Shown here: one piece after another, positions 1 to 42,960 of the stretch
How the letters are laid out: every line of letters begins with the position of its first letter
How positions within the stretch are numbered: the first letter of the stretch is position 1
NCBI GenBank assembly: GCA_964016885.1
Contig: OZ024742.1
Location: 358,546,001 to 358,610,000, forward strand
DNA length: 64,000 nucleotides
DNA from: Eledone cirrhosa
Taxonomy: Eukaryota
Direction of reading: 5' to 3'
Program-made: the position numbers and the translations under genes
The notes under the pieces: generated by a model
Seen by the model: the letters and a program-made list of their open reading frames with translations, nothing else
What the model was told of the DNA's origin: nothing
Databases searched by the model: none

Positions 1-3000
1 ACCACCAACAACAACAACAACAACACCACCAACAACAACACCAACAACACCAACAACAACAACAACACCAACAACACCAACAGCAACAGCAACAACAACA
101 ACAACAACAACACCAACAACACCAACGACGACAACCACAACAACACCAACAACAACAACAACAGAACCAACAACACCAACAACACCAACAACAACACCAA
201 CAACAACAATACCAACAACAACACCACCACCAACAACAACACCACCACCACCAACAACAACAACAACACCAACAACAACACCAACAACACCATCAACAAC
301 AACAACACCAACACCAACACCAACACTACCATAACAACAACAACAATACCAACAACACCAACGACACCAACAACAACACCAACAACAACAACAACACAAA
401 CCACACCAACGACAACACCACCAACAACAACAACAACAACACCACCACCAACAACAACACCAACACCACCAACAACACCAACAACACCAACGACAACAAT
501 GGCAACAACAACAACCCCAACAATACCACCACAAACAACAACAAAATCACAAACAACAACAACACCAACAACAACAACAACAACATCACCAACAACAACA
601 CCAACAACACCAACGACAACAACAACAACACTAACAACAACAACACCAACAACAACAAGACCAACAACACCAACAACACCAACAACAACACCAACAACAA
701 TAACACCAACAACACCAACAACAACACCAACAATACCAACAACAACACCATCAACACCAACAACACCAACAACAACACCAACAACAATAACACCAACAAC
801 ACCAACAACAACACCAACAATACCAACAACAACACCATCAACAAAAACAACACAAACAACAACAACAACAACAACAACACCAACAACACCAACAACACTA
901 CACCAACAACACCAACAACACCAACAACAACAACAACACCAACAACAACAACACCACCACCAACAACAACAACACCAACAACAACAACAACACAAACAAC
1001 ACCAACGACAACACCACCAACAACAACAACAACAACCACACCACCACCAACAACACCACCACCACCAACAACACAAACAACACCAACATCAACAACAACA
1101 CTACACCAACAACACCAACAACACCAACAACAACACCAACAACAACAACACCAATAACAACACCAACAACTTACAACACCACCAACAACAACAACAACAA
1201 CACCAACACCACCATCAACACCAACAATACCAGCAACACCAACAACACCAACAACAACGCCAACAACAACAACACCAACAACAACAACAACCCAAACAAC
1301 ACCAACAACAACACCAACAACACCAACAACACCAACAACACCACCACCAACAAAACAACGACAACAACACCAACACCAACACCACCAACAACAACAACAA
1401 CAGCACCACCACCACCAACAACAACAACAACAACACCAACAACACCAACACCAACAGCAACAACAACAACACCACCAACAACACCAACAACACCAACAAC
1501 AACACCAACACCAACAGCAACAACAACACCAACAACACCAACAACAGCACAAACAACACCAACAACAACACCAACAACAACAACAACAACAAGACCAACA
1601 AGACCAACAACACCAACAACAACACCAACAACAATAACACCAACAACACCAACAACACCAACAATACCTACAACAACACCAACACCAACAACACAAACAA
1701 CACCAACAACACCAACAACACTACACCAACAACAACACCACCAACAACAAGAACACCACCACCACCAACACCAACAACACCAACAACACCTTCAACAACA
1801 ACACCACCAACAACAACAGCACCAACACCACCACCATCAACAACAACAACACCAACAACAACAACACCAACACCAACACCAACACCACCAACAACAACAA
1901 CAGTACCAACAACACCAACAACACCAACAACAACACCAACAACAAGAACACCAACAACAACACAAACAACACCAACAACAAAACCAACAACAACAACAAC
2001 GACAACACCACCACCACCAACAACACCAACAACACCAACGACAACAACAACAACACTAACAACAACAACACCATCAACAACAACAACACAAACAACACCA
2101 ACAACAACATCAACACCACCAACAACAACACCAACACCACCAACAACAACAACACCACCACCAACAACAACAATGCCAACAACAACAACACCAACAACAC
2201 CACCAACAACTACAACACCAACAACACCACCACCACCAACAACACCAACACCACCAACAACAACACCAACAACACCAACGACAACACAAACAACACCAAC
2301 AACACCAGCAACACCACCAACAACACCAACAACAACACCAACTACAACAACAACAACAAAAAGACCAACAACACCACCAACAACAACACCAACAATAATA
2401 ACACCAACAACACCAATAACAACACCAGCAATACCAACATCAACACCACCAACAACAACGACACAAACGACACCAACATCAACAACAACACTACACCAAC
2501 AACACCAACAACTCCAACAACAACACCAACAACAACAACACCAATAACAACGCCACCAACAACAACAACACCACCACCAACAACAACAACAACAACACCA
2601 ACACCACCAACAACACCAACAATACCAACAACACCAACAACACCAACAACAACGCCAACTACAACAACACCAACAACAACAACAACCCAAACAACACCAA
2701 CAACAACAACAACACCACCACCACCAACAACACCAACACCACCAACAACAACACCAACAACACCAATAACACCAACAACACCACCACCAACAAAACAACG
2801 ACAACAACACCAACACCAACACCACCAACAACAACAACAACAGCACCACCACGACCAACAACAACAACAACACTACCAACAACACCAACACCAACAGCAA
2901 CAACAACAACACCAACAACACCAACAACACCAACAACAACACCAACAACAAAACCAACAGCAACAACAACACCAACAACACCAACAACAGCACAAACAAC

Positions 3001-5295
3001 ACCAACAACAAGACCAACAACACCAACAACACCAACAACAACACCAACTACAATAACACCAACAACACCAACAACACCAACAATACCTACAACAACACCA
3101 ATAACAACAACAACACAAACAACACCAACATCAACACAAACAACACCAACAACACCAACAACACTACACCAACAACAACACAACCAACAACAACAACACC
3201 ACCACCACCAACACCAACAACACCAACAACACCTTCAACAACAACACCACCAACAACAACAACACCAACACCACCACCACCAACAACAACAACAACACCA
3301 ACAACAACAACACCAACACCAACACCACCAACAACAACAACAATACCAACAACACCAACAACACCAACAACAACACCAACAACAAGAACACCAACAACAA
3401 CACAAACAACACCAACAACAAAACCAACAACAACAACAACGACAACACCACCACCACCAACAACACCAACAACACCAACGACAACAACAACAACACTAAC
3501 AACAACAACACCAACAACATAAACAACACCAACAACAACATCAACACCACCAACAACAACACCAACACCACCAACAGCATCACCACCAACAACAACAACA
3601 CCACCACCAACAACAACAATACCAACAACAACAACACCAACAACACCACCAACAACTACAACACCAACAACAACAACACCAACACCAACACCACCACCAG
3701 CAACAACAACACCAACAACACCAACAACACCAACAACACCAACAACAACAACAACAACTACACCAACAACACCAACAACAACACCAACAACAACAACACC
3801 AACAACAACAACACAAACAACACCAACAACAACACCAAGAACACCAACAACACTACACCAACAACACCAACCACACCAACAACAGCACCAACAACAACAC
3901 CACCAACAACAACAACACCACCACCAACAACATCAACAACACCAAGAACAACACCAACAACACCACCAACAACAACACCACCAACAACAACAACACCAAC
4001 AACCCCAACAAAACCAACAACACCAGCAACAATACCAACAACAACAAAAACACCAACAACACCAACAACACCACCACCAACAACGACAACACCAATAACA
4101 ACACCACCAACAACAACCAACAACATCACCACCAACCAACAACAACACCAACAACACCAACAACACCAACAACAACAACAACAACACGAACAACAACAAC
4201 ACCAACACCAACACCAACAACAAAACCACCACCAACAACAACAACAACACCAACAACACCAACAACACCAACAACACCAACAACAGCACAAACAACACCA
4301 ACAACATCACCAACAACACCAACAACACTACACCAACCATACTAACCACACCAACAACAACACCAACAACAATACCACCAACAACAACAACAACACCACC
4401 ACCAACAACAACAACACCAACAACAACAACAGCAACAATAACACCAACAACACCAACACCAACACCAACACCACTACCAACAACAACAACAACACCAACA
4501 ACACCAACAACACCAACAACAACAACACCAACACCAACACCACACCACTACCAACAATACCAACAACACCACCAACAGCAACAACAACACCACCAAATAC
4601 ACCAACAATACCAACAACACCACCAACAGCAACAACAACACCACCAACAACACCAACAACAACAACAACAACACCAACAACAACAACACCAACAACAACA
4701 ACAACAACACCACCAACAACAACAAAACCAGCAACACCAACAAAAACAACATCAACACCAACAACAACAACACCAACAACAACAACAGCAACAACACCAC
4801 CAACAACAACATCAACAACACCAACACCAACAACAACAACACCAACAACACCACCACCACCACCACCACCACCAACAACACCAACAACACCAACGACAAC
4901 AATGACAACAACAACAACACCAACACCACCAACAACAACAACACCAACACCACCAACAACAACACCAACAACACCAACACCAACAACACCAACAACACCA
5001 CCACCACCACCAACACCAACAACAACAACAACACCACCACCAACAACACCAACAACACCAACGACAACAATGACAACAACAACAACACCAACAACACCAC
5101 CACCAACACCAACACCAACAACAACACCAACACCAACACCAACACCAACAACAACAACACCAACAACAACAACACCAACACCAACACCACCAACAACAAC
5201 AACAACGCCGACAACAACAACGCCGACAACAACGCCGACAACAACAACAACAACAACACCAACACCACCACCAACAACAACAAGACCAACAACAT
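1..5295. repeat. Degenerate (ACA/CCA)n trinucleotide-period low-complexity array with an internal ~1.44-kb duplication
   Basis: Almost only C and A. Rare markers recur about 1440 bp apart (CAAAACAACGAC 1351/2791; AAACCAACAA 1981/3421; CCTTCAAC ~1789/3232). Runs off the window start. Confidence 0.95.
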
Positions 5296-6009: not shown

Positions 6010-7285
6010 TTAAGGAGGTTGATGCACTTAGAATTGGCATCACCTGTCTGGAACCCCTCTTGCTCGGACCATTGACCTCCTGGAAACTGTTCAGAGACAT
6101 GCAACAAAGCGAATAGCCTCCATCAGCAATCTACCATACTCTGAAAGCCTTGCTCCCTTGGGCATGGATATATTGAAGCTCTGACGTCTGGCAACTGACT
6201 TGGTAAACACCCACAAAATTATTAACCATCTTGCCAACAACAACCCTGAGCACCTTTTTTAATTCCATGTGTCTAACACACATGGGCATGCCCATAAAAT
6301 CATAAAACAGCACAGCTCCCATGACTTTCGAAAACATTTTTTCACACTCAGAGTTGCTGAAGCATGGAACAAACTACCTGCATCAGTTGTTAGCTGTTGG
6401 GACACTGCATCCTTTAAAACCTCCATGGAACAAACTACCTTCATCTGTTGTTAGCTGTTGGGACACTGCATCCTTTAAAACTCCATGGAACAAACTACCT
6501 GCATCTGTTGTTAGCTGTTGGGACACTGCATCCTTTAAAACCCACATGGAACAAACTACCTGCATCAGTTGTTAGCTGTTGGGACACTGCATCCTTTAAA
6601 ACCTCCATGGAACAAACTACCTTCATCTGTTGTTAGCTGTTGGGACACTGCATCCTTTAAAACTCCATGGAACAAACTACCTGCATCTGTTGTTAGCTGT
6701 TGGGAAACTGCATCCTTTAAAACCTCCATGGAACAAACTACCTGCATCTGTTGTTAGCTGTTGGGACACTGCATCCTTTAAAACCTCCATGGAACAAACT
6801 ACCTTCATCTGTTGTTAGCTGTTGAGACACTGCATCCTTTAAAACTCCATGGAACAAACTACCTGCATCTGTTGTTAGCTGTTGGGAAACTGCATCCTTT
6901 AAAACCTCCATGGAACAAACTACCTGCATCTGTTGTTAGCTGTTGGGACACTGCATCCTTTAAAACTCCATGGAACAAACTACCTGCATCTGTTGTTAGC
7001 TGTGGAGACAATGCATCCTTTAAAACCTCCATGGAACAAACTACCTGCATCTGTTGTTAGCTGTTGGGACACTGCATCCTTCAAACCCTCCATGCTTCCT
7101 GGAATTCGCCAACACTACACCTGATATCACGCCTCCATACACACGCACACATGTATATCATGACTCATACACTATTCACTTCCCTGACATTTGTACATTA
7201 TTCTATGTACTATACATGCACCTTACATGTACACAATAATTTCATTATTATTATTTTCATTATCATTATTTCTACCATTATTATT
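6010..7285 (+). mobile_element. CR1/L2-group LINE 3' fragment with internal tandem expansion
   Basis: Broken translation HLELASPVWNP..LLETVQRHATKRI..HDFRKHFFTLRVAEAWNKLPASVV matches the CR1-type ORF2 C-terminus. Followed by a 3' UTR and (ATT)n tail. Homologous to 41776-42238. Confidence 0.85.
6363..7090 (+). repeat. 60/61-bp minisatellite, 12 units
   Basis: Unit CATGGAACAAACTACCTGCATCTGTTGTTAGCTGTTGGGACACTGCATCCTTTAAAACCTC starts at 6363, 6424, 6484, 6545, 6606, 6666, 6727, 6788, 6848, 6909, 6969 and 7030. Confidence 0.97.
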
Positions 7286-7762: not shown

Positions 7763-10138
7763 CTGCATAGTGGTCGTGGAGGTGCCACGTCAAATAGCAC
7801 CCAGCCCACACTGTAAAGTGGACGTGGCGGTGCCACGTCAAATAGCACCCAGCCCACACTGTAACGTGGGCGTGGAGGTGCCACGGAAAAATAGCACCCA
7901 GCCCACACTGTAAAGTGGACGTGTAGGCACCACAGAAAAAAGCACCCAGCCCACACCGTAAAGTGGACGTGTAGGCGCCACAGAAAAAAAGCACCCAGCC
8001 CACACTGTAAAGTGGACGTGTAGGCACCACAGAACAAAGCACCCAGCCCACACTGTAAAGTGGACGTGTAGGCGCCACAGAACAAAGCACCCAGCCCACA
8101 CTGTAAAGTGGACGTGTAGGCGCCACAGAAAAAAAGCACCCGACCCACACTGTAAAGTGGACGTGTAGGCGCCACAGAAAAAAAGCACCCAGCCCACACC
8201 GTAAAGTGGACGTGTAGGCGCCACAGAAAAAAAGCACCCGACCCACACTGTAAAGTGGACGTGTAGGCGCCACAGAAAAAAAGCACCCGACCCACACTGT
8301 AAAGTGGACGTGTAGGCGCCACAGAAAAAAAGCACCCGACCCACACTGTAAAGTGGACGTGTAGGCGCCACAGAAAAAAAGCACCCAGCCCACACTGTAA
8401 AGTGGACGTGTAGGCACCACAGAAAAAAAGCACCCAGCCCACACTGTAAAGTGGACGTGTAGGCACCACAGAAAAAAAGCACCCAGCCCACACCGTAAAG
8501 TGGACGTGTAGGCACCACAGAAAAAAAGCACCCAGCCCACACTGTAAAGTGGACGTGTAGGCACCACAGAAAAAAAGCACCCAGCCCACACTGTAAAGTG
8601 GACGTGTAGGCACCACAGAAAAAAAGCACCCAGCCCACACCGTAAAGTGGACGTGTAGGCACCACAGAAAAAAAGCACCCCGCCCACACTGTAAAGTGGA
8701 CGTGTAGGCACCACAGAAAAAAAGCACCCAGCCCACACTGTAAAGTGGACGTGTAGGCACCACAGAAAAAAAGCACCCAGCCCACACCGTAAAGTGGACG
8801 TGTAGGCACCACAGAAAAAAAGCACCCAGCCCACACTGTAAAGTGGACGTGTAGGCACCACAGAAAAAAAGCACCCAGCCCACACTGTAAAGTGGACGTG
8901 GAGGCACCACAGAAAAAAAGCACCCAGCCCACACTGTAAAGTGGACGTGTAGGCGCCACAGAAAAAAAGCACCCAGCCCACACTGTAAAGTGGACGTGTA
9001 GGCGCCACAGAAAAAAAGCACCCAGCCCACACTGTAAAGTGGACGTGTAGGCGCCACAGAAAAAAAGCACCCAGCCCACACTGTAAAGTGGACGTGTAGG
9101 CGCCACAGAAAAAAAGCACCCAGCCCACACTGTAAAGTGGACGTGTAGGCGCCACAGAAAAAAAGCACCCAGCCCACACTGTAAAGTGGACGTGTAGGCA
9201 CCACAGAAAAAAAGCACCCAGCCCACACTGTAAAGTGGACGTGTAGACGCCACAGAAAAAAAGCACCCAGCCCACACTGTAAAGTGGACGTGTAGGCGCC
9301 ACAGAAAAAAAGCACCCAGCCCACACTGTAAAGTGGACGTGGAGGCACCACAGAAAAAAAGCACCCAGCCCACACTGTAAAGTGGACGTGTAGGCGCCAC
9401 AGAAAAAAAGCACCCAGCCCACACTGTAAAGTGGACGTGTAGGCGCCACAGAAAAAAAGCACCCAGCCCACACTGTAAAGTGGACGTGTAGGCGCCACAG
9501 AAAAAAAGCACCCAGCCCACACTGTAAAGTGGACGTGTAGGCACCACAGAAAAAAAGCACCCAGCCCACACTGTAAAGTGGACGTGTAGGCGCCACAGAA
9601 AAAAAGCACCCAGCCCACACTGTAAAGTGGACGTGTAGGCGCCACAGAAAAAAAGCACCCAGCCCACACTGTAAAGTGGACGTGGAGGCACCACAGAAAA
9701 AAAGCACCCAGCCCACACTGTAAAGTGGACGTGTAGGCGCCACAGAAAAAAAGCACCCAGCCCACACTGTAAAGTGGACGTGTAGGCGCCACAGAAAAAA
9801 GCACCCAGCCCACACTGTAAAGTGGACGTGTAGGCGCCACAGAAAAAAAAGCACCCGACCCACACTGTAAAGTGGACGTGTAGGCGCCACAGAAAAAAGC
9901 ACCCAGCCCACACCGTAAAGTGGACGTGTAGGCGCCACAGAAAAAAAAGCACCCAGCACTCACTGTAAATGAGGTTGGTGTTAGGAAGGACATCCAGCTG
10001 TAGAAATCGAGCCAGAATCAGTTCCCGTATGAGCAAGACAAGGTCAGCCGACCGGACACAGCCCACAACAGGACAACTCGTCTAACCCATGCTAGCGTGG
10101 AAGAACGGACGTAAAACGGTGATGATGATGATGATGAT
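7763..10138 (+). mobile_element. RTE-related SINE/non-autonomous element carrying an expanded 49-bp VNTR
   Basis: After the array come TTGGTGTTAGGAAGGACATCCAGCTGTAGAAA, an RTE-like 3' end (CCCATGCTAGCGTGGAAGAACGGACGTAAAAC) and a (GAT)n tail. About 95% identical by eye to the inverted copy at 18943-19220. Confidence 0.85.
7781..9968 (+). repeat. 49-bp minisatellite, ~45 units
   Basis: Unit CACAGAAAAAAAGCACCCAGCCCACACTGTAAAGTGGACGTGTAGGCGC, head-to-tail with no spacers. Confidence 0.97.
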
Positions 10139-10953: not shown

Positions 10954-11342
10954 CATATTATTTACAAAGAAGTGAATAAAAAGTTGTTAAGAATGAAATG
11001 AAGTGGTCCATTATTAACAATGTGTTAACCAGGCTAGTGAGGTAATTGAGAAGGATTATAGTAAAACATGTCATCCTTTTCATGATGGCCTGTAAAAGGA
11101 GCACTTTAAGCAAAGTTATTTTTTATCTTATTTACAAATTTTTTAATATTTTTTTAATGTTACTAAAAATGGTAGGGTTTTATCTTAAACTGGTTTGTTT
11201 GTTACTCAACAGCATCTTTTTAATATATTTTTTACATCTTTTGAGTCAGGAAGAGTTGAATTTTTGCACACAAAATTATTCCAGACAATTAACCATGATA
11301 GGCGTAACTGAATTTATTAAATGTTGTTATGGTATAACTATT

Positions 11343-11635
11343 CATCATCATCATCATCGTTTAACGTCTATATTCCACGCTAACATGGGTTAGACGGAAG
11401 TTGTCCCACTTGAGGCAAGATTGGTTGGGTGACTGTGTCTCGCTCATATAGGACTATCTGGCAGGTTTTCTATGGCTGGATGCCCTTCCTAACACTAACC
11501 ACATTTACAGTGTGGACTGGGAACTTTTTACTGTGTTACCTACATGGCTACATTACAGCGTGGACTGTGTGTTTTTGTTGTCGTGACACCGACACGATCT
11601 CATTAGTTTGGACTGGATGCTGTGATACCAACATA
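11343..11635 (-). mobile_element. RTE-tailed SINE copy with 2-3 degenerate ~48-bp units
   Basis: (CAT)n tail, GGCTGGATGCCCTTCCTAACAC motif, TTACAG(T/C)GTGGACTG at 11505 and 11553, and a third partial copy near 11607. Confidence 0.75.
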
Positions 11636-12147
11636 ACTTTATAGAGAAAGGGTGGTGTTGGCGGGAGTGGGAGGATGGAGTGGGGTAGTAGGTTGTGGTG
11701 TGTTTGGTTTGGAGGGGCCTACTGACTCTAGGTTAACTTTGCACGTATGGTTGAATATTGTCCTAGAATACTTCGGCCTATATTTGTGGATATTCTTTAT
11801 GAATTTTTCTTGAACACAATTTGGTGTAGAGTTGTAAAAAACTTATTTCCCAGAGATCTGATTCTAGAGCACTATTTCGCGATACTCAAACATTGAATAA
11901 TAAAACTAAATGATGTTGATATTTATAGATTGGAAACAGTAAATGTCAGGGTTCTTGTAGTTCCAAGCTTTATGAAGTTTTTTTTATGGCTTCATCAAGA
12001 AGGAAAGTCAGTATCTAGGATAGATTTTTTTTTTGTGGCTTACAAGCCTTGTTGAAGGATGAGAAGTTATGTCCAAATCAGAAACCAAACCAAACTGAGT
12101 GAATTCTTCAAAATTCATCGACAAAATTCAAAGACAAGGTGGAGGTA

Positions 12148-13525: not shown

Positions 13526-14634
13526 ATGCTCTTCAAAAGTGAGCCCCTTGCGAAAAAATACTCAGTGACTCCGGTCACCTCTGCCACACTCACCCTTTTC
13601 ACTACATACATGGGAAAAAGAACACAAAGAATAAACATTACCAATATTCCACCCAATATTAACATCTGGTGGATTCTGGCAGGGTTCTTGGATGAGGATG
13701 AAGACACAAAACTGTCGATTCAAAAATCCACAAGAAACACCTTGAACGGCACAAGCTTGGAAATTTTGGTCCAAATGAAACCGGACAGAATTTCAAAGAT
13801 ACCAGAAAGGATGCCTGTAGACAATACAAACTATATACAGATTTCGGCAGAAGGGGAGGCCACATTGTTTTAAATACGCAAGCACATCGCATTTAAAGGC
13901 CTCCTGTCCCCTCTTACGACCCCCCCCCCCCACAAAAAAGTACTTTTACCAACACCAACTCCAAAACCACGACAACAACAACATTACACAAAACATGCAA
14001 ACACACAAAAACATACAACTGTTCAACCACAAACAACAGAAAAAACACAAACAATTCCCCTGAAAAACACAGTCCCACCTCATGCCACTCCATCTAACAC
14101 TACCACAATCACACACACAAACACACCATCACCACACAACATACCCCTCCCATACGCCTCTGATGACGATTCATAACCAGACGAGGCTACTTCTCCATCC
14201 CCAAATGAAGATGAAGGAGAGCCTCGGAAATCAAAAAAACAAAAAAAGAGACACCGCAAAGCCACAAAAACAACAATCACCAACACGAACACACAACCAC
14301 CAACACAAACAACAACACAGACACCACCACAATCACCCCCCCCCCCCCACACACACACACCAGCAAAACAAACAACAACACCACCCCATAAATGCCCACC
14401 ATAAGAAGAAAAAAAAACAAACCAAATCAACACAACAACAAAAAAACAACAATACACATACATTAACACTGATAGAAACCTATCAGAAATTGAAAGAACA
14501 GTTTTCACAGGACATTGGCAACCCCTGCCAAAAACCAATAAACCGTGTTGAAATGTTTCCCCACCCCACTCAACACCACCACCAGAACTGAAATGGAGAT
14601 TGAACAACCCGATCTCCAGGAAACGAAAAGGTAA
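13526..14634 (+). pseudogene. L1/Tx1 ORF1 remnant (zinc knuckle plus low-complexity tail)
   Basis: After a frameshift at ~13855 it reads GRPHCFKYASTSHLKASCP, a CX2CX4HX4C knuckle with one Cys changed to Tyr. A T/Q/P-rich tail ends about 40 bp before the ORF2 ATG. Confidence 0.65.
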
Positions 14635-14675
14635 GTGCACCTTTTCGTCCTTTTCGCCAACTCTTCTCCACCAAC

Positions 14676-17600
14676 ATGGCTGACTTACGAGTTGGAAGCG
14701 TGAATGTGAGTGGCCTAGGGATGCCCTGGAAACAGGGCCAACTTTTAAACGACCTTAGGTCACAGGGTATAGATGTAATAGCCATCACAGAGTCCAGGAT
14801 CCACAACAGGCAACAGCTAACCCCCATCTTCAATGACTTTGAGATCTATGCATCTCTCTGTCAGCCGGGAGGTGGGTGGGGGGTGACTGTCATGTTTCGG
14901 AAAAACCTGGATCTCGAAGTACAGCAAGTACACTTGGACCCGGAGGGTAGACTGGTAGTCCTAGACGTGAACAGTATTAGAGGTGGAGCCTTCAGACTGG
15001 TGGCCGTTTATGCCCCAACCGGGCAATCACAATCGCGTCAAGACTTCTTTAAACGTCTAGAGTATTTTCTGGGAACATCTCACTCCTTGCTTTTAGTGGG
15101 CGACTGGAATGGTATCCTAAATGCACGATGGGACTATGTGGGAGCATGTCCCAGTAGAGCGGGTGCAACAGCTTAAAAAATCTAATCGGCAAATTCCAAC
15201 TGGCCGATAGATATCGACTAGATTTCCCGACTGCACCACAGTGGTCATGGGCAAATCACAGCGGGACATCTAGATCGTATCTAGATAGGTTTTTCATTAG
15301 AGAGAAGGACAAGAAGATGTTAAGCTGTCCACAAATGCATCTGGTTGCCTATTCAGATCACAAACTAGTCGTTTGCATAGTCATCCGTGATAGAATACAT
15401 AGACAAGGACCCGGATACTGGAATCTGAACGTGTCGTTGCCGGCACGAAAAGCCTACAGTGAACTGATAAGTAGATTAGTTAAGCAAGAGTTGGCGGGAA
15501 CCATCGTCAACAATAGATGGTGGTACTCTCTCAAGAGAGCAATTAGAGTAGAATCGATAAGGTTAAGCAGAGAATTAGCTTTAGAGAAAAACAAATCAGA
15601 AACAGAACTAGCAGCCAAGGTAGAAAAGGCGCTTAGGAGTGGCAACGGAGCTAGAGTGTTAGCAATTTGAACGACACTGGACCAGTTCTTCGACGCGAAA
15701 CACAAAGGCTGTGTGGTCAGAAGTAAATCACGTGCTCTAGGAAACGAGGGAGCAAAAGCTGTTAGCTGGACCCCAGTGGCGGAAGCGAAAAGTGGCAACA
15801 AGTCCACGATTCGGTCTTTGAAAGACCAAAACGGACGCGTGCTACTTGACCCCAGGCAGATGTGCGCAACCTTTCAGCGGCACTTTGCGCAGCTGTTTGA
15901 GCAGAACGAGGGTGCACCGAACGCGGCAATGGACTTTGGTTCATATCGCGACGGCCTGCGGCATCTCTCGAGCATGGATGCCAAGTTCTGTAAAAGACCT
16001 ATCACAGCCACTGAGATACAGGACGCTATGGGCCGCTACGGGAAACGCAAATCACCCGGTCTAGATGGTCTACCGTATGAGTTTTACATAGGCATTCCGG
16101 ACTTGTTCTCTGGCGTCCTCGAAGCCGTATACTGCAATTGGCAGCAGAACGAGACAATTCCCAGTTCTGCAGGAAGGGCGTAGTAACACTGATCAGGAAA
16201 GACGAGAACAAGGGGGACGAAATAAACAATTTCAGTCCCATAACTCTGCTCAACACAGAGTTAAAGATTTGGCCAAGGTGCTAACAACGAAGCTTGCGCT
16301 TGTCGTCGAAAACCTGGTAGGGAAAGCGCAAACGTGTGTAATCCCGACGAGGTCCATACACGACAACTTTCACCTCATGCGATACATCATAGAGAGGGGG
16401 CGTAAACCCGGCTTCGGTGGGGCTCTGCTCAATTTAGATCAGTCTTAGGCATTCGATAGGGTCGACCATCGATACTTGGAAGCAGTTCTCAAGGCGGCCG
16501 GTTTAAGCCCCATTTTCAGAGGCTGGATCAAGGCGATGCACACTAGTATCTGCTCGAAGGTCAAGGTGAACGGCTACCTATCGGAGCCGTTCGCAATTAC
16601 GCGTTCTATTCGACAGGGATGCCCTCTCTCCTCCATTATGTACGTATTGACTCTAGAGCCAGTACTGCGGAAGTTGGAGTTTTTGCAAGGCATCCCTTTA
16701 GAACCGGGACTACGAAAAGCGGCGTCGGCTTATGCCGACGACGTGACGGTAATGGTGTCGAAACCTCGGAACTCAAGGTAATCGGCAACCTTCTACAGGA
16801 ATACGAAAGGTTCACAGGAGCAGAACTGAACCCGGACAAGTCTGTCGGTTTGCAACTCGGAATGTGAAGAGGTAAACCATGCCATCCGACAGCGTCGTCA
16901 GACGCTGGACGGAAGGACCAGTGAAATTGCTCGGGGTCTGGTTCGGTCCAGACCTCCAGGTGGAGAAAAAACTGGAACGAGGCCATGGCCAAGTTATTTG
17001 CGCTCACACAGAAGTGGGCAGAGTGAAAACTGTCTTTGAAAGGTCGAGCTGAGGTGGCGAACACTTTCATAGCGTCCGTCATCTTCTACCGCTTGACTGT
17101 CGTGCCTTGTCCCCGTGAATACCTCACCAAGATTGAACGCATGCTCTTCCAGTTCCTGTGGAAGAAGCAGGCTCCACTGGTGAGGAGATCCGTCTGCTGG
17201 CAACACCCTTCCAACGGAAAGCTGGGCATGCCGTGGCTAATGATGCGCAAATATGCACTGAGGCTACGGCATCTTCAGGTATTCCTCACCGACCAACCGG
17301 TGTGGGCACCGGTTGTGAGACAGGCCTTCCCACAACTTGTCTCGCTGACGGAGCTGCAGTCCTGGGTCAAGTGAAGACAAAAGAAGGTGCGTACCTGGCA
17401 CATTGAATGCGCCCAGGCACTCACAGTCCTCTGTCAAGCGGGCACAACAATCAGTGGAGACTCCACTTCGACATTCTATAGAGGGTTAGTACTTTACAAG
17501 TGTGACGACATGATCGGGAGACTCTAGGCGTCGAAGACGACGATCTCACCAGTCTGTTCGGTAGGACTTTCTGCCGAGGACCTGTGAACAACCTCCAGGG

Positions 17601-18942: not shown

Positions 18943-19326
18943 TATCATCATCATTATCATCACCGTTTTACGTCCGTTCTTCCACGCTAGTATGGGTTAG
19001 ACGAGTTGTCCTGTTGTGGGCAGTGTCCGGTCGTCTGACCTTGTCTTGCTCATACAGGAACTGATTTTAGCTTGATTTCTACAGCTGGATGCCCTTCCTA
19101 ACACCAACCTCATTTACAGTAAGTGCTGGGTGCTTTTTTTCCGGTGCGCCTACATATCCACTTTACAGTGTGGGTTGGGTGCTTTTTTGCCGTGGCACCT
19201 CCACGACCACTTTGCAGTGGGATGATATGGACCCCAGTCCTATCATCTCATTTCTACAGCTGAGTAAACTGGAGCAACCTTTCGATTGCAAGCCCAATGC
19301 TCTAACCACTAAGCCATGCACCTTCA
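18943..19326 (-). mobile_element. Composite SINE: tRNA head (B box deleted), partial CORE, two 49-bp-type units, RTE-like 3' tail
   Basis: 19229-19326 matches 10791-10953 with an internal deletion. 18943-19220 is the reverse complement of 7763-10138 with the array at about two units. Confidence 0.85.
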
Positions 19327-23718: not shown

Positions 23719-26700
23719 CTCTTTCTCTTAATTTCGAGTATATTTTTTTGACCGGCCACCTTCCTGGTGGCAAGGTTGTAAAAGAAAAGAAATTGTCATC
23801 CCTTGAATCGCAAGAATGTTTTGCAAATTTTGAAGGTGCCAGCTATCGCAGCCATTTGTAAACTATGAATTAGGGAGCTGCGCTTTTTGTCCGCAAATTC
23901 AAGTTCAGTCATACTTTGGTCCAAGCGGGTTGGTATATAACCCGTAGCTCTAATAATGATGGGTATGAAGCTAAAGGTGTATCTTGGATTTGTAAACTCC
24001 TCATCAATGGTCCGTAGATGTCCTCCTTCTCCTGTATATTTCTGACAACGTTTACATCAAGTGGGCAGCTGATCTCCACAACAGAACACGTTTTCAATGT
24101 GTGGTCCCAAACAACAATATCAGGCCGGTTGTGATTTAATTTGGTGGCAGTTTTTATTTTCAGGTTCCACCAGTATTCCTTAGAGCCATCTGTCTCAATA
24201 TATTCCTCCTCGTTTGTTGTTAATTTTGTTTTCCGAAGTGCGTTGCAGATGGTTCTAGCTATCCCATCGTGTCTCATGTGGAGGTAGTAGCGAGATGACA
24301 TTCTTTTGCAGCTGGCAACAATGTGGCTTACATCCTCGATCTTTGTTTTACATAGCCTACATTTATTGTCAGCTGCTGGCCCTCCTCTTTTGTGCAGCAG
24401 ATATTTGGTAGGGAGTTCTTGTTCCTGTATTGCATAGAGATATCCCTCAAGGTGTGATGTCATAAACTTGTCAGAACTCCATGCCAGGCTTTTTGAGTTG
24501 TTTATCCCCTCTATGGTCTGTGTTTTACGCCTCAAGTATCCATGCACAACTTTTTCTGTAAATTGGTCAATTTTTTTATCTTGTTTGTACATTGAATAGG
24601 ATCTGATTTCTCTGGGTGAGAGATTTATATCAGGCTTTATTCCATATCTCTCCTCCAGATCAGTTGCTATTCTAATGATATTTTTTTTTTCATGCTCATA
24701 AACCTGGGCAAGATGGTTGCCAACCTTTTTCCTCTGTTGAAGGTGTTGCTTCAGTGTTACTATCCGGGTCTCATATGTTGTTAATATTGATTTTAGACCC
24801 CGGTCACCTTCCTTGCGTGAGAAGTATAGCCTATCCACATCACCATTGATGTTAAATTTCCCAGTAACACTGAGAAGTTTTCGAGTTCTAACATCCATCT
24901 CACTTAGTTCTTGCAATGACCAGTTCAGCAGGCCAAATGTTGGCGTTAGAATTGGCACAGCATAAGTATTGTGGGCAATGTATTTGTTGTATGCTGACAG
25001 TTCTGATGACCATATTTTCTTTACTCTTCTGAGGTATTCAGTTCTGGTTCTCTCCTTATTTATGGGTCCATCATATCTGACATTCTCATCCTGTCCAAGA
25101 TATCTGTAGTTGTCACCTGACTGCAGAGGTTGTATTGTCAGGCCGTTCATCTCTAGATTTCTAGAGGAGGGCACACCTCTTCCACGTTTTACTGCCAAAT
25201 ATGCACACTTGGACTCACCAAATTTCATTTTGATGTCGGTTGAGAATTGTGTAATGAGGTTCAATTGTTTCTTGATGTCATTGATATTTGGCCCATACAA
25301 CTTCAGGTCATCAACAAAGAAAAGATGGGAGATACTTCTGGGCCCACTTCTTTGTCCACCTTGTTTCCTGAGTAGGTAAGATAGTGGATTCAGTGAGAGA
25401 ACGAAGAGCAGCACTGACAAGCTATCACTCTGAAAGATGGCCTTCTGGTAATGTATCTTATCAGTCTTAACTTGCTCCTTCTCACCTCTAAGGATCAAAT
25501 TGGTGTACCAGTTCTTGGTCAGGCATTCAACAGCAGCTACCAATGGTTGTGGGACTTTAGCTAACTGTAAAGCCTTAATAATCCACCCATGAGGTATACT
25601 ATCAAATGCTTTTTGATAGTCCAGCCACACGACAGTCATGTTTCTGCGATTCTTTGTTGTTTTTTCCTGAATCATTTTGTTAGTTAGTAGGTGATCTATG
25701 CAACCCCACACCTCCCTCTTTCCACCAGCTTGCTCAGGTGTTATGATGTTGTTGGTAGCACAGTGATCCTGTAAGAACAGGTTAAGGCACCCAGTATATA
25801 ATTTATACATGATGTTTTGGCAGGCTATTGGGCGGTAATTTTTAGCAAGGGTGGTTTGGCTATTTGGGGGAATGAGGAGAGTAGTGGCAGTTGGTAACCA
25901 TCTGGGCAGTTCTTGTGTGCCTTTAATGGTTTCTGTAAACAGCCGTATGAGATCTTGCCGATAGAAAGTGAAATTCTTCAACCAGTATCCTGTAATGAGG
26001 TCTGGGCCTGGCGATTTCCTATTCGACATTTTCTGTAGAGCTGTTTCCAGTATTGACCCATCTATGTCATATTGTTTTATCTGGACATGTTGGCAGTCGT
26101 CCTGTTCCAGTTCTTTTAGCCAATTAGCTTGTCTGTTGAATCCGTCATCCGTTTCCCATACAGATCTCCAGTAGCTCTCAACCTGTTCTGTTGAAGGGGT
26201 GTCGTTTACAGGGATTGAGCTTTTGCCACCGAAGCTGCGATAAACTGATTTAGGATCTCTGGCAAACAATCTATTTAGCACTTGTCGTTTATGTGCTGTT
26301 GACTTATATTTTAGTCTTTCTGTTGTAGCTGTGAGTTGTTGTTTCAACTGGTGTAATTTGGAGTTCAAAGTTTTAAATTTTGTATCTCCAAATCGTCTCT
26401 CTAACCTTTTCTTTAGGTCTTCCTGGTGTCGTGTGAAGTTGCTCTCTATGTTGCATTTCATAACGACTGCGATGTGTGAGATACTTCGTCTCAGGGACAA
26501 AATTTTGGTTTTTAAATTTCGCATCCACGCTGGTTCAGGCTTTCTGTTTGTATCTTGATTGCGTGGTTTTAGATGTGTGTTATATGATAGCAATGTGACA
26601 GCTGAAACATTATAACAAAACATTAAGCGTTTCAAATGTCGTTTCTACACCTTTAGATCGTATAGCCTTCAGATAATTGCCAGCTATTTCGTTCACCGCT

Positions 26701-27919
26701 TCCAATTCCAATTTAGTGGGTTCTTTACTGATTCTGGTGTTGTATGGTCTGTCACTCACATTAAAGCTGTGAATCTCTTGAAACATATCGTTCCATATCA
26801 CTTGTAAGGTGTCCACAAGTTTTTGGTGCTCTGTTTGTTCAGTAGAGTCATGAATTTCAGCCTCGTTGTTGATGTGGTGACAATTACTACAAGAGTTAGC
26901 TGACCTTTCTCGCTGTTCTTCAGTGGAAGTGGGATGGATTTCAGCAAAATTGTTGGTGAGCTGTTCACTGTTAGATTTAGCTGGCCATTCTCTTTGTCTG
27001 TCAGTGGAGGTGGGGTGGTTGTCTACAAGGGTAGTATCACTCAATTCCGTTAGATGTATCAATTTACATCTAATGATACGTTTTGCCTGTTCATTTAAAT
27101 GCTTTGGAGAAAAGTCTAATTCTGGGTGTTTGGAGTTCCATAAAGTTTTTAGCCTTTGCATAAAACCGAACTTTTGGGGTTCAGATTGTTTGTATGCTTC
27201 ATATAATACTTTGTTAAGCTCGTAGCTCCACTGTATACAACGGTTGTAGTTGCGATTTGGTCGAAGGAGACTTGTACTTTTTGCCATGATGAGTTCGTCT
27301 ATTCACTAATATTTCGTATTTATTTTTGAAAATAGTCGATGATCTTCTTTAAAAGTTTCGACAAAGTTCTGCCAGAATCAAATTTAAAGTTATTCACAGC
27401 TTGGGTAATATTTTTTTTCAGTTAGTTTTTAATTCTACAACTGTGTTTTAAACGTTGTTCTTGAATCGTTTGAATCGAGAACAAAAAGACCGTTACTTAG
27501 TATATTTCTTTATGAATGTAATATAATATAACAACGCTGTATTTATATGTTAAAGTTTATGTATCATTCATATAAATAGGTGTTCTACAACTTATTCACA
27601 ACATATTCACAGTTCAAACACTTATGTTTCTGTTTCTGAATCGAAAACGTTACTTGTATATTTCTTTATAAATGTAATATAACAACGTTGCATTTATATG
27701 TTAAAGTATATGTATCGTTCATATATCATAAGTGTATGTATCGTTCATATAAATAGGTGTTTTACAACACACTTACAGTTCAAACACTTATGTAGAATTA
27801 TTGTATGTAATCTTACCGCGTAATGTAGCTCAACTTTTTCCAATATATGGTATGTTGCCTTCATGTAAGCCGTAATTACACACGTCCGATTATCGGACAC
27901 TGACCACAACGGTCGCCAT
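23719..27919 (-). mobile_element. Full-length R4/Dong-clade RLE non-LTR retrotransposon inserted in (TATG)n, 13-bp TSD
   Basis: Single long ORF with RT and PD-(D/E)xK nuclease. TATATGTATGTAT at 23706-23718 and 27920-27932. About 630-bp 5' UTR and 80-bp 3' UTR. Confidence 0.88.
23796..27287 (-). pseudogene. R4-clade ORF (N-terminal helical domain, RT, CCHC finger, restriction-like endonuclease), ~3 frameshifts
   Basis: QWSYELNKVLYEAY..GFMQRLKTLW; KSPGPDLI, NYRPIAC, WLDYQKAFDSIPH, FFVDDLKLY; CRLCKTKIEDVSHIVASC, RHD, RPDIVVWD..VVEISCP. Frameshifts at ~26625, ~23985 and ~23875. Confidence 0.9.
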
Positions 27920-28040
27920 TATATGTATGTATGTATGTATGTGTGTATGTGTGTATCTATGCATGTATGTATGTATGTATGTATGTATGTATGTATGTAT
28001 GTATGTATGTATGTATGTATGTATGTATGTATGTATGTGT
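27920..28040. repeat. (TATG)n microsatellite, middle part of a tract also seen at 23665-23718 and 29659-29780
   Basis: Direct reading. Confidence 0.95.
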
Positions 28041-29553
28041 CGGAGCCTATCTCAGTAAAAAATGGAGTGAAACAGGGGGATATTCCAGCACCGACCCTGT
28101 TTGCCATATACTTTGCAATGGTTTTCTGTATTGCATTCAGGAATTGCGAGCATGGTGTTTACATCGGGTATCGAACCTCAGGCAGCATATTTAACATCAG
28201 GCGCTTTGCTGCAAAGACAAAAGTATTTACATCATTCATAAGAGACCTCTTGTATGCAGATGATTGCGATCTTTTAGCGCACACAGAGAGTGGTATGCAG
28301 CACATTTTGAATGCATTTTTTGACGCTTGCACTGCCCTAGGATTGACTGTCAGTCTCAAGAAAACCGTCGTCATGTACCAACCTGCCTCTGGTAAGCAGT
28401 ACATTGAACCAAATATCTGTGTATGGTAAACGACTTGGAGTGGTTGATCAGTTTGTCTACCTGGGAAGCACTGTCAATCGATACAGCAACCTTGATAGTG
28501 AAATCTCACTTAGGATTAGAAAAGCAAGTGATGCTTTCGGAAAGCAAGAAAGGCGACTCTGGGGTCGGCGAGATATATGCAAGAAGACAAAGGTAAAGTT
28601 GTACAAGGCATGTGTGCTCTCTTTTCTTCTTTATGTCTGCGAAACCTGGGTCACATATCGACACCACCTTAAGCAATTGGAGCGTTTCAATCAGATGTGT
28701 CTCAGACGGATCCATGGCGTTCACTGGAGGTACCACATCAGTGATATCAACATTTTGGAAAGGTCTATGTGTGACAGTATAGAAGCTCTTGTGCTTAAGC
28801 AACGACTCCGTTGGAGTGGTCACCTTGCCTGGATGAAGGATTCTAGAATACCAAAACAACTCTTTTATGGAGAGTTAGTTAAAGGAAAACGACCGCCACA
28901 TAAATCCAAAAAAGAGGTATAAGGATTCCTTGAAAGCCTCTTTGAAAGACGCTAACATCTCTGCTGATACATGAGAAAATATTGCTGCTGATCGTAATAA
29001 ATGGAGAAAGACTGTATATGAGGGAAAAGTTGCCTTTGAGGCATCTCGAATCGCATATGAGAAAGTAAAGCGGGATGTGAGGAAGGGCATTGCTGTTGCA
29101 TTTCCAGACGGAGAGGGTCCTCTTATGGTGCTGACATGCAGCGTCTGTGCGAGACTCTGCCTAAGCAAAGCTGGACTCGAAAGTCATCTTTGCAGTCATA
29201 AAGTAAGACCAGTGGTTGACTACCAGGCTGCTGTTGGAGATGCTACTCATCATGCTTGCCAAGCATGTGGTAGAGAATGTAAATCAACAGGAGGGCTCAA
29301 GCGACATGCAAAAGTACATGAACTCCAACCACAGCCGGCTATTCCCAGTGAATGTTTTGGTTGCCGACTCTGTGCAAGACATTTTAGATCATTGGCTGGG
29401 CTAAAAAGCCACATTCGATCGCAGCGCTGTTAGTTGCTATCGTGTGTGTGTGTGTATAGATATGTTTATGTGTGTGCGTGTGTGTCTATGTGTATATATA
29501 TATGTATATTATTATTGTTGTTATTATTACTATTATTTTTATTAATATATATG

Positions 29554-30616: not shown

Positions 30617-30699
30617 AAGTGTATATATATATAATTAAATGGGTATATATATATATATATATTTTTTTTAATGACCATGCTGTCAAAATGGAGGGGTAT

Positions 30700-33600
30700 A
30701 GAGGGCCCTTGAGTCTAGTAAGACATACTCTCTAGTGCTGGTGGCACAAATAAAAGCACCCAGTCCATGCTGTAAAGTGGCGCTGGTGTTAGGAAGGGCA
30801 TCCAACCAGTGTATCAATGCCAAAATGCTTATCAGCACAGCAACAAATAGGAACAACAACAAAATATGAAGACGTCGCATCTCAGAGTTACAACACTTAA
30901 TGTTGGCACTCTCAGAGGTATATCTGCTGAAATAGCGGAGATGCTGGAGAGAAAGCATGTGGATGTGTGCTGCGTGCAAGAGGTGCCTCTGCGAGACTAG
31001 TCGTAGGCAAACGTCTTAGCTATAAGCTATTCTGGGAAGGTAAGGATGATGGGTTAGGGGGAGTAGGCATTTTCCTGGCTGAGAAATGGATCAATAAGAC
31101 AATAGAGGTAGTTCGAGTTAGTAATCGAATAATTAAGCTTAGATTAGTTGTAGGCAGGAGACTACTGACAATCATCTCTGCCTATGCTCCCCAAGGAGGC
31201 CTAGGCAAAGATAAGAAATACTGCTTTTACGAGCAACCTTTACAAACAACTGCAATGACAGAGGACGGAGACATCGTTATGCTAGCAGGAGACTTCAATT
31301 GTCATGTTGGACAGCTCCAGGATGGTTACACTGGGGTACATGGTGGGCACGGTTACGGCTCAAGAAATGAAGAATGAGTGAGACTTCTTGAATTTTGTGA
31401 TGCAGGTACATTGACTATTTGCAACACAAACTTGCAGAAACCTGCCAATTACCTAATAACCTACAAATCTGGTGAGCACATAAGCCAGATTGACTTCCTG
31501 CTAGTTAGGCAGCGGGACAGGCAGGTAGTGTCTAATAACAAGGCATACCCTGGGGAAGAATGTACCACACAGCATAGGTTAGTCGTTAGTGATATCTCAG
31601 TAAGCAAGAGATGGAATGAGACATACAGGAAGGTGTGGAGAAGAAAGGTCTGGAAGCTAAAAGACCTTTCACTAAAATACAAATTTAGGAAAGCCCTTCA
31701 AGATGTATATGACGAAAAAGAAGACGATTTAGAGACGTATGCCATAGATAATAAATGGAATTTCTTACGTGACAACCTGCTGCAGGCTACTTATGAAACT
31801 TGTGGCTGGAGCAGAGCTCCAACCAGACAGAGAGTGACCTGGTGGTGGAACAGCACAGTAGATAAGGTCATTAGAGACAAAATACTAGCATGGAAGGCTT
31901 GGAAAAAGGGTGGGAGTAGGGAAGAATATACAGCCGCTAAGAGAGAAGCTAGACGTCAGGTGTACTTAGCACGCAGGGAGGCAGAGAGTAGGAGGTTTTC
32001 CAATGTTCTGCGACGGGAAGACCAGGGGCGTGCGGTGTTCCACATTGCAAGGCAGTGTGTCAATGCAAATCAGGATGTTGTTGGAGATAAATGTGTCCGG
32101 GATGATGCCAGTGTACTTAGTGTCATGAATGATCAGAAAAAGGAGGCCTGGAAATGTCATTATGAGAGACAGATGAATGTGGAGAACGAATGGCAGAGAG
32201 AGAAATTACCCCCAGTAGATCCGACAGAGGGACCAGCTATTGTGATTGACGAATAAAGGGTCCAAGAGACGATTAAGGAAATGAAAAATGGTAAGGCTGC
32301 TGGACCATCGGGAATAGTTGCTGAGATGCTGAAGGCATCAGGGGACGTAGGCACTAAACTGGTTGCACGCATCATCAATCAGGCTATCTATGGTGCTGTC
32401 ATACCCAAAGACTGGTGCAGCAGTATTCTCATAAAATAGCTACAAAGGTAAAGTGGATGCTCTGGAGAGAAGCAATTATAGGGGTATGAAACTGATGGAT
32501 GAGGTTATGAAAGTGGCAGAAAGGATATTAGCACAACTAATTAGAGAAAGGGTCAAACTAGATGAGATGCAGTTTGGTTTTGTGCCTGGGAAGAGTACAA
32601 CAGATGCCCTCTTCTTGGTGAGACAATTGCAAGAGAGGTTCTTAGAGAAAAATAAGCCACTATACTTAGCCTTTGTTGACCTAGAGAAGGCCTTTGATAG
32701 CGTACCCCGATCTGTCATCTGGTGGTCCCTAAGCAAGCTAGGTGTTGAGGAATGGCTTGTGAGGACAGTGCAAACTTTGTACAGAGGTTCTCTTCTCAGT
32801 AAAGTCATGGTAGGAATGGAGTTTAGTGTGGAATTCCAGATACAAGTAGGAGTACATCAAGGTTCGGTCGTCAGCCCGCTCTTGTTCATTATAGTCCTCC
32901 AAGCCATAACAGAGGAGTTTAAGACTGGCTGTCCATGGGAACTTCTCTATGCTGATGATCTGGTTCTTATAGCAGAATCAGTAGAGGAGCTAGAGAATAA
33001 ATTCTGGCTATGGAAACAGCAGTTGGAAGCAAGAGGACTGAGAGTGAACCTAGCTAAGACAAAAGTGTTGATGAGTAGAAAAGAGGACAAAACTTTGATT
33101 CAATCAGGGAAATGGCCATGTTCGATATGCAGAAAAGGAACTGGCATAAATTCTATAAAATGCACACAATGCAGATCCTGGGTACACAAGAGATGTAGCA
33201 GGATAGTAGGCAAACTAATAGGTAGGGAGAAATATGTATGTAGTAGATGAACAGGGAAATTAGACAGTAGAAGTCGCATTGATAGACACATTTTTCAAAT
33301 GCAGGAGGGCGCTATAGAAGTGGTGGGTAGCTTCCGGTACCTAGGAGATCAGATTAGCATGGGAGGAGGATGTTCTGAGGCCATAGTATCTAGAATAAGG
33401 ACGGGTTGGAAGAAGTTTAGGGAGCTGCTTCTTCTACTGACAAAGAAGGGTTTCTCCCTGCGTACGAAAGGCCGGTTCTATGATGCCTGTGTGAAGAGCA
33501 CGATGCTGCATGGTAGTGAGACATGGGCAGCAAATGCAGAGGATATGCGACGACTGTAGAGAAATGAGGCAAGCATGCTCCATTGGATGTGCAGTGTAAA

Positions 33601-33900
33601 TGTGCATGAACGACCCAGCATAAATGTGTTGAGAGAGAAACTGTGTCTGAGAGGGATAGATTGTAGTGTACGGGAGAGGAGACTGAGGTGGTATGGACAT
33701 GTGATGTGCATGGAGGATGACCGATGGGTGAAGAAGTGCGAGGAAATGCCAGTTGAAGGAAGACGTGGTAGAGGTAGACCACGAAAAACATGGGCGGAGG
33801 TGGTGAGAACAGAACTCAGATCATTGAAGCTCACGGTGGAGATCACGAAGGACCGTGACGAGTGGAGAGATGCAAGCAGGGAGATGATGATGATGATGAT
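30700..33900 (+). mobile_element. Near full-length RTE-clade LINE (APE, RT with PHD-like insert), decayed
   Basis: ATG 30866 MKTSHLRVTTLNVGTL..CCVQEV, SAYAPQ, AGDFN, SQIDF; QFGFVPGKST, FVDLEKAFD, GVHQGS, LLYADDLVL; RLRWYGHV..GRPRKTW; (GAT)n tail. Multiple stops. Confidence 0.93.
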
Positions 33901-38751: not shown

Positions 38752-39039
38752 ATTATCCCAGAGAATAATGCACAATACTGTGCAATTTTATCATGGCACC
38801 AGCATTACTGAGTTTGTCATGTCTTTGAAATAGCTAAGGAGTTTTCCCCTGGGTCCAGTTATATTGGGGGGAAAAAGGAACAACTGCTTGCAGCCCCCTG
38901 CAGTTGTGGGGGGGGGGGGGGGGGGGCACCAACAGCAGCCATAGCAATTTATTTATGCCCTCAGCTGGGATTTTTAGTTTTAGGATGGCTAGAATTCTTT
39001 TAATTTAATATAAAATAATTATAATGAAATGATTGTGTA

Positions 39040-39420: not shown

Positions 39421-39734
39421 ACTTTTCAATTCCAATTACTTGCAAGGAGGAAAGGCAAAGCTAACTTTGATATTAAAATTGAGAGGTTTGCTGTATATTC
39501 TAATTTTTTAGGTATGAAGGAGTCCCCAAACCTAAAGTACCCCAGGCCTCCCGAGGTCTAAATCCAACCCTGGTTTTCCAGGCCCTTTGTTTGACAGGTT
39601 TTCCATGGCTGGATGCCCTTCCTGTCACCAACCACTTAACAGACTGAACTGAATTACTGAACACCATGTAAAGCACCAACACTGTTATAGTGGATTGGCA
39701 GTATCGGTAGAGGGTCTGACGCCATGCTTTGCAG

Positions 39735-42238: not shown

Positions 42239-42311
42239 AAATACAGATGTAATTTTAAAATGACATCTCCATGGCTTTGCTACTTTGCAGCCTTCTAATG
42301 AATTAAAATAA

Positions 42312-42735
42312 TCATCACCATTTAACATCTATTTTCCATATGTTTATGGGTTAGATGGGTTGTCACATTGTGAGACCAGTCAGTTCAGGGTACAACCTCA
42401 TGCTCATATGGATCAGTAGTTTGGCTTGATGCCCTTTCTAATGCCAACCTTTTACCGTGTGAACTGGGTGATTTGTATCATGGTAGCAAAATGACCATCA
42501 AGCAAGGTGGACTGAGTGATTTTTTCATGTCACCAGCATGACTACCTTATAGGGTAGACTGGGTACTTTTTATTCTTGTCACTAGCGATGCCACCTTACA
42601 GGGTAGACTGGGTACTTTTATTCATGTCTCCAACATGACCACCTTACAAGGTGTAGTGGGTGTGCTTTATTCATTTCCCTAGCACAACCACCTTGCAGGG
42701 TAGAGTGGGTGCTTTTCCTCATGTCACCAGCATCT
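42312..42735 (-). mobile_element. RTE-tailed SINE with ~6 diverged ~48-bp units
   Basis: Tail at 42312, GGCTTGATGCCCTTTCTAATGCCAACC, and units at ~42451, 42500, 42547, 42596, 42644 and 42693. Confidence 0.75.
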
Positions 42736-42854: not shown

Positions 42855-42960
42855 TGAGTTGAGAGGACCCCCATATGAGTTGAGAGGACCCCTTATGAGT
42901 TGAGAGGAGCCCTTATGAGTTGAGAGGAGCCCTTATGAGTTGAGAGGACGCCTTATGAGT
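42855..42960. repeat. 20-bp minisatellite, ~5 units
   Basis: TATGAGTTGAGAGGA(C/G)CCCT repeated. Confidence 0.9.

Follow-up and report, generated by a model that had tools for sequence, protein, structure and literature searches.

The 45-Unit Array and Its Retroposon

Within the window, by which we mean the whole 64,000-nucleotide stretch of Eledone cirrhosa DNA analyzed here, TRF reports a tandem repeat with a period of 49 bp, 45.0 copies and 96% matches at 7769-9969, and a 29-nt core of the unit is found 46 times in the window vs. 0 times in 100 shuffles, in agreement with the approximately 45 units counted in the initial annotation. When split into units, the array comprises 45 units of 18 types, namely three leader-type, 41 internal and one terminal unit (Table 1). 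It is followed by a conserved motif, which occurs six times in the window against a chance mean of 0.01, and then by a body of ~145 bases and a (GAT)n tail. The body of this copy differs from the family majority at 4 of 146 bases. The array is a tandem sub-part of an interspersed retroposon and lies in register with the rest of the element, as do the SINE-derived sSat arrays of squamates discussed below. As the copy is truncated inside a partial unit it can be assigned neither to a SINE nor to a LINE, and no target-site duplication was found at the element, the sole match being one of 7 nt to its own tail. By eye, the downstream motif (9975-10010) aligns loosely to the unit and may be an older, diverged unit copy.

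Table 1. Features of the 45-unit element and of the other module- or motif-bearing loci in the window.
Position	Strand	Feature	Remarks
7763..7773	+	5'-truncated remnant of partial upstream module	Element start, head lost; the same partial module precedes unit 1 in relatives
7774..7918	+	Three leader-type units	Of the type found first in two-unit family copies; changes private to the array
7919..9923	+	41 internal units	In each, 5' half from family unit 2 and 3' half from family unit 1
9924..9974	+	Terminal unit	Same type as in last position of ordinary copies
9975..10119	+	Conserved motif (9975-9995) and retroposon body	LINE-type 3' end
10120..10138	+	(GAT)n tail	
11342..11680	-	3' end of second LINE family (RTE-B)	Two clear units and one degenerate unit, inherited (11499-11640)
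18944..19325	-	tRNA-headed SINE, same young family	Two units and a partial one (19108-19220); internal head deletion
30671..33900	+	Decayed near full-length LINE (RTE-C)	One unit (30735-30782) and motif in 5' UTR; ATG 30866; GAT tail
39611..39631	-	Sixth motif copy	Without a full unit upstream
42310..42735	-	Copy of old family D	Six units (42451-42735) inherited from a multi-unit master

Identical neighboring units are clustered in the window array (11 vs. 5.8, p ~0.014), and at least four of its shared variants are absent from family units 1 and 2. One shared variant occurs five times in this array and elsewhere only seven times, each time singly. Blocks of at least three unit types that recur exactly were not found in the window array. 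It is very improbable that the 45 units are an artefact of assembly, given the 18 unit types in clustered order, the unique diverged first units and the many comparable arrays at other loci, each with other private variants.

Other Module-Bearing Loci in the Window

The five window loci which carry the module represent four families, and their two-, three- and six-unit states are inherited. The amplified module was initially placed in SINE copies; however, a SINE head is visible only at 19 kb. The unit at 30735 lies in the 5' UTR of a LINE, the 11505 locus is a LINE 3' end, the 42451 locus is a member of an old family, and the head of the 45-unit element has been lost. The proposed match of the module to the 5' region of an RTE is borne out by its presence in the 5' UTR of an RTE-like LINE at 30735-30782. 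The units were also said to lie in every case directly 5' of the motif, which is so at the five loci; a sixth motif copy, absent from the initial annotation, is not preceded by a full unit.

Matches to a reverse transcriptase (RVT_1) and a PHD finger were found in the RTE-C copy, which has no module at its 3' end, and one unit is present in all 18 relatives listed in full, a set selected by best match. Full-length homologues of RTE-C have a single ORF of ~1,030-1,100 aa with an AP endonuclease (PF03372) and PF00078. The partner LINEs have the layout of RTE elements and are called RTE-like here, a name which rests on architecture. Copies of RTE-B have the same two clear units and one degenerate unit as the window locus at 11505, and the end of a sense ORF lies at most 700 bases upstream in 22 of 53 copies. 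Fragments of three more decayed LINEs, in which an endonuclease or a reverse transcriptase was matched, are found in the window at 14600-16200, 23909-27300, and 27869-29430.

Family D is old, its relatives showing 72-78% identity. Nine relatives retain an intact first unit; they carry 5-9 units, with fixed types in first and last position, in a search whose query favored multi-unit copies. No link to an ORF emerged for family D. Among 91 units of this family, the nearest neighbor occupies the same array position in 0.82 of cases (shuffle 0.29) and comes from the same locus in 0.09 (shuffle 0.06). With units clustering by position, the family D arrays were inherited from multi-unit masters, and the consensus of the six-unit array, initially taken as diverged and its own, is that of its family. 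Other old families, seen at L239, L244, and L255, have a ~140 bp tandem of unit, motif and spacer. Overall, the module is present in several RTE-like LINE families related to one another and in a derived SINE with a tRNA head, and their copies inherit one, two, three or ~5-9 modules with position-specific sequence.

The Young Family and Its Usual Unit Number

The 29 closest other copies of the body mostly carry two units and a partial one, and some are single-unit. What precedes the units is a tRNA-related head in some relatives and the end of a LINE ORF, in sense orientation, in others. The head matched the Rfam tRNA model in all three relatives tested, at 32.9, 28.5, and 28.1 bits where the gathering score is 29, and ARAGORN found no tRNA in the heads of the relatives. 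The tRNA-headed SINE may also bear a likeness to the CORE domain. A pseudo-LTR layout, with the module at both LINE ends, was considered and not seen; two of 11 extended loci reached the RTE-A 5' region, both without the motif there.

Exact patterns of similar length, whose reversed-pattern controls gave 0 matches, were counted across the 3.0 Gb host genome, whose repeats may resemble those of octopus-type cephalopods. This yielded 21,387 one-unit junctions, 3,768 terminal units of the two-unit form and 343 chimeric junctions in which the 5' half of unit 2 meets the 3' half of unit 1. All nine complete young copies encountered in 60 grid-sampled 10-kb stretches were single-unit. Unit number in the young family is nearly fixed at one or two with ~1% outliers, and a multi-unit VNTR is not a standing part of most copies. 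The idea that one-unit copies are contractions of a two-unit master was dropped, with one-unit junctions being 5.7 times commoner, and either form may derive from the other. The young one- and two-unit forms may be contractions of multi-unit ancestors. An intermediate family with five to six units and a terminal unit resembling that of the young family was observed at L061 (minus strand, ~8960-9200 from that end), L222, and L244.

Among the public sequencing runs listed, none contained the window locus (best share 0.11) and no RNA run with it appeared, which has no bearing on expression. When the 19 kb SINE was compared with reads of four sequencing runs, the family appeared with 49-nt skips in two of the four, both from one other organism, and nothing was seen in the other two. 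No description of the module or its arrays was found in the literature; Repbase, Dfam and most supplements lay outside this search and the families may be named there. The module is likewise not mentioned in passages of three papers on mollusc repeats (PMC13282606, PMC9115989, PMC4758252).

Long Arrays at Other Loci

Thirty other loci from the first 100 listed chimeric matches, together with 40 regions from two variant patterns, provided a sample of 72 elements. It should be noted that selection by exact pattern biases this sample toward long, little-mutated arrays and that unit counts are good to ~3 units. There were 0-1 units in 14 elements, two in 20, three in 15, four in five, 5-9 in eight and 11 to ~89 in ten, so that 38 of the 72 junction-selected elements have at least three units (3 to ~89) and 10 of the 72 at least 11. 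As many of these elements have 0-2 units, a chimeric junction alone is no proof of expansion. Long arrays of up to ~89 units are present at many unrelated loci, each with its own variants, and they have two kinds of head upstream and two kinds of tail downstream, in tRNA-headed SINEs as well as LINE 3' ends. Contigs 1-3 (~1.22 Gb) contain 13 loci with at least three units vs. roughly 1,200-1,550 expected two-unit matches, and by extrapolation the expanded share of young two-unit copies is about 1%. Approximately four of 14 placed loci with at least seven units lie in the outer tenth of a contig, which in this small and selected sample shows no subtelomeric preference. At L134, two adjacent arrays of 20 and 14 units have the same variant order and the same 3' flank, reflecting local duplication of an expanded copy.

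The units of long arrays cluster by locus. Once the first and last units of each array were dropped, 15 arrays provided 362 units, of which 0.88 have their nearest neighbor in their own locus (0.12 on average in shuffles and 0.15 at most), and four of 186 unit types (35 units) are common to more than one locus. This is the pattern of repeated independent origin at unrelated loci, with locus-private units and no homogenization between loci. Clustering of units had been proposed in advance as the check on independent amplification, and clustering by position named as the outcome that would speak against it; the long arrays and the six-unit family fall on opposite sides of this check. Repeated independent multimerization, as envisaged by the initial annotation, therefore applies to long arrays in other young-family copies but is not supported for the five window loci as amplifications within one SINE family, given their four families and the inherited two-, three- and six-unit states.

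Private variants are found in nearly all units of an array, often as CpG decay on either strand (57 of 59 units in L061, 83 of 84 in L076 and 30 of 30 in L062). Shared variants fall on CpG in 19 of 64 cases, at six CpG positions of 42. A block of eight units is duplicated in L061 (0 of 300 shuffles) and blocks of three units are significantly duplicated in L134, L157, and L130, while the exact block duplication test found none in L062, L076, or L129. The bodies of array-bearing copies have 3-8 differences per ~140 bases and are thus of ordinary age (family mean 3.6%). No variant order common to unlinked long arrays was found, and there is no sign among them of long arrays being copied by retrotransposition.

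How the Arrays May Have Grown

Private variants, CpG decay and block duplications imply mutation between rounds of copying, and hence we infer stepwise growth at the DNA level after insertion. Taken with the clustering by locus, the private variants and block duplications suggest that the long arrays grew independently, in steps and most likely post-insertion. We therefore favor, with a probability of roughly 0.85, an explanation in which the 45-unit array is a minisatellite inside a retroposon copy of a family with one or two modules, and in which it grew after insertion through DNA-level misalignment; this is based on the pattern of variants and not on alleles of different length. An insertion with at least two near-identical modules would provide a ready direct repeat. 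Approximately 1% of young two-unit copies would misalign and gain a chimeric unit, and further slippage, unequal exchange or conversion could then lengthen the array step by step, with new point mutations spreading among the units. More tentatively, the first gain or loss of modules in the masters may have been a DNA-level change in the source copy or slippage of the reverse transcriptase. The first step from two to three units could also have occurred during reverse transcription.

Three mechanisms had been put forward for the multimerization, of which post-insertion expansion at the DNA level fits the long arrays, but one-step template jumping and rolling-circle copying do not, since the extra shared variants, CpG decay and block duplications need mutation between rounds. 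In the former case, a long array would arise all at once on insertion, as the RTE reverse transcriptase repeatedly jumps or slips on a two-unit RNA template. The internal units are exactly the chimera expected from a backward slip, some short arrays (L132, L133) are almost pure mosaics of units 1 and 2, and module number in the masters has changed several times. A two-unit template, however, offers two states per position, and the arrays show shared variants beyond these two states, CpG decay running in both directions and duplicated blocks of several units, which makes a one-event origin improbable.

It is also possible to imagine an SVA-like history, in which source copies already had long VNTRs and the long arrays were copied by retrotransposition. 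For short arrays this is true; the 5-9 units of old family D have position-specific types, and a 112-bp dimer in RTE-B recurs with the same position-specific variants. Young-family long arrays, on the other hand, share neither variants nor order across loci, the only twin arrays seen are adjacent and due to local duplication (L134), and most copies have one or two units. Such a history is quite improbable for the long arrays, and the likeness to SVA noted at the outset is a loose one, sound in that masters with variable tandem modules existed (family D) and unsound for the young family with its one to two units and ~1% outliers. Growth after insertion by DNA-level misalignment remains our preferred reading.

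RNA Structure and Possible Function of the Module

Rolling-circle copying of a small self-cleaving circular RNA, as in retrozymes, would produce a concatemer with head-to-tail units of near-constant length, which is what the arrays look like, and one small hairpin with modest covariation is present. Nonetheless, no Rfam ribozyme was found at E up to 1 over 6000-43700, and core motifs of the hammerhead, twister and hairpin ribozymes were absent from the array except for one chance-level 7-mer per strand. Judged from sequence, the monomer appears to contain no known ribozyme. Folding of the sense strand is not superior to that of shuffled sequences (z -0.7 to -1.8) and the arrays retain the family's first and last units in order, leaving the rolling-circle route with next to no probability. 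Folding of the single-stranded DNA is also unremarkable (z -0.1 to -2.0), thus providing no case for hairpin-driven slippage.

Two small stems had been proposed in the unit. Covariation of the first (GGYGC/GCACC) does not exceed that of shuffles (107 of 500), and this stem is not supported. The second (CACT-GTAA-AGTG) is better drawn in another register, as a 5-bp stem around a CUGUAA(A) loop. This stem is 82% paired in 21 hand-picked units from different families. Its covariation of 0.168 vs. 0.093 is reached in 3 of 500 shuffles and lies above all slid controls, although related sequences can exceed shuffles without structure and two rows lack the 3' arm. RNAalifold found no consensus structure for the 21 units. 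We regard a functional CUGUAA-loop hairpin as a lead.

The recurrence of the module in the UTRs of several LINE families points to a small candidate cis-element. A stronger proposal, which we consider rather unlikely, is that the module, with its CUGUAA-loop hairpin, is under selection as a functional RNA or as a promoter element, which several lineages moved from the 5' UTR to 3' ends and multiplied, as extra copies would raise transposition or keep 5'-truncated copies and SINEs active. If the module were selected in this manner, the host minisatellites would be a by-product of retrotransposon dosage tuning and a 3'-end counterpart of the mouse L1 monomers.

Comparison With Known Systems

Going by excerpts of the papers cited here, the closest precedents are the monomer arrays of mouse L1 and the SINE-derived satellites of reptiles. 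Mouse L1Md elements have variable monomer numbers and position-preferring subtypes, and an outlier of 50 monomers has been ascribed to unequal crossing-over (Zhou and Smith, 2019; PMC6454616). The present elements are similar in having tandem modules in a LINE UTR, number variation from copy to copy, position-preferring subtypes and a rare long array (PMC6454616). In contrast, L1 monomers are ~200 bp promoters in the 5' UTR, whereas the module described here is a 49-bp candidate element which is multimerized in 3' ends and the SINE body and is single in the 5' UTR.

In squamate sSat, part of a SINE forms arrays of anything from a few to hundreds of repeats (Vassetzky et al., 2023; PMC10702118). 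Features in common are first and last monomers that adjoin the remainder of the SINE, and repeated independent origin (PMC10702118). However, sSat units are 70-290 nt, are homogenized between loci and tend to be subtelomeric (PMC10702118), while the units here are 49 bp, locus-private, seeded by a repeat already present in the master and not clearly terminal. Minisatellites derived from Alu and B1 are seeded by short direct repeats inside the SINE via slippage or unequal exchange (PMC6947457); these have other hosts and other unit sizes, and in the present case LINE 3' ends are involved too.

SINEs of the layout tRNA-CORE-RTE5'-RTE3' and bipartite RTEs have been described, and in some RTEs a conserved domain of the 5' UTR is present in two copies (Kojima, 2018; PMC5786205). 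The SINE studied here shares with these the tRNA head, a middle matching the RTE 5' UTR and an RTE-type 3' end with a microsatellite tail (PMC5786205). It differs from published Ceph-SINEs, as its RTE part is unlike those of OegopSINE and SepiaSINE by eye and the Ceph domain is not evident in it (PMC5786205). The motif of the 49-bp module was not found in the supplement of that paper, and the portions of the text available to us do not describe tandem expansion (PMC5786205). SVA is likewise a composite retroposon, and its VNTR is built of 35-50 bp units (PMC5753468), but there the VNTR is a standing part of the element, which only old family D resembles here, and no shared sequence is implied. 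Ordinary duplication at the DNA level after insertion, by which the array most likely grew, is a known route from mobile elements to minisatellites.

A Replicated View of Minisatellite Birth

The arrays need no new mechanism, and their interest lies in providing a replicated natural experiment on the birth of minisatellites. As a rule, such births have to be reconstructed from one locus at a time. In the present case, thousands of near-identical two-unit seeds with a known start state are present in one genome and lead to a continuum from three to ~89 units, making rates, step sizes and positional effects measurable with true replication. A second seed, the 112-bp period of RTE-B, offers an internal comparison.

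This 112-bp stretch, consisting of unit, motif and linker, is duplicated in the common form of RTE-B (10,365 internal vs. 26,809 terminal junctions). Loci with two copies share position-specific variants, and most loci with 3-5 copies share private ones. The two-step course of expansion thus recurs with the 112-bp period in RTE-B, and it does so again with an unrelated 61-bp repeat. The latter forms an array of 12 copies at 6363-7094, within an unrelated interspersed repeat and ~700 bp from the 45-unit array; it is single at ~39.2 and 42.0 kb and present in ~4 copies in L005. TRF on a 600 kb sample gave 32 rows, some of them overlapping, with a period of 25-200 and at least five copies. Considering that the genome is rich in minisatellites and that the 61-bp array has expanded likewise, expansion is not special to the 49-bp module.

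The 112-bp tandem in the RTE-B 3' end was seen at L238, L239, L259, L283, L292, and L304-L306. Its internal junction is matched 3,847 times on the forward and 6,518 times on the reverse strand, a skew that is absent from the terminal junction and may reflect the presence of one very large array, or a few, elsewhere in the genome. Two further minisatellites in the window, 32 bp x 49 (37184-38755) and 20 bp x 5 (42855-42960), have units unmatched in the fetched loci. The two ends of the window consist of very long degenerate arrays of CAA/CAC type (1-5294) and GGT/AGT type (43736-64000), which show extreme strand skew in opposite directions and contain Thr-rich open frames of more than 1,000 codons.
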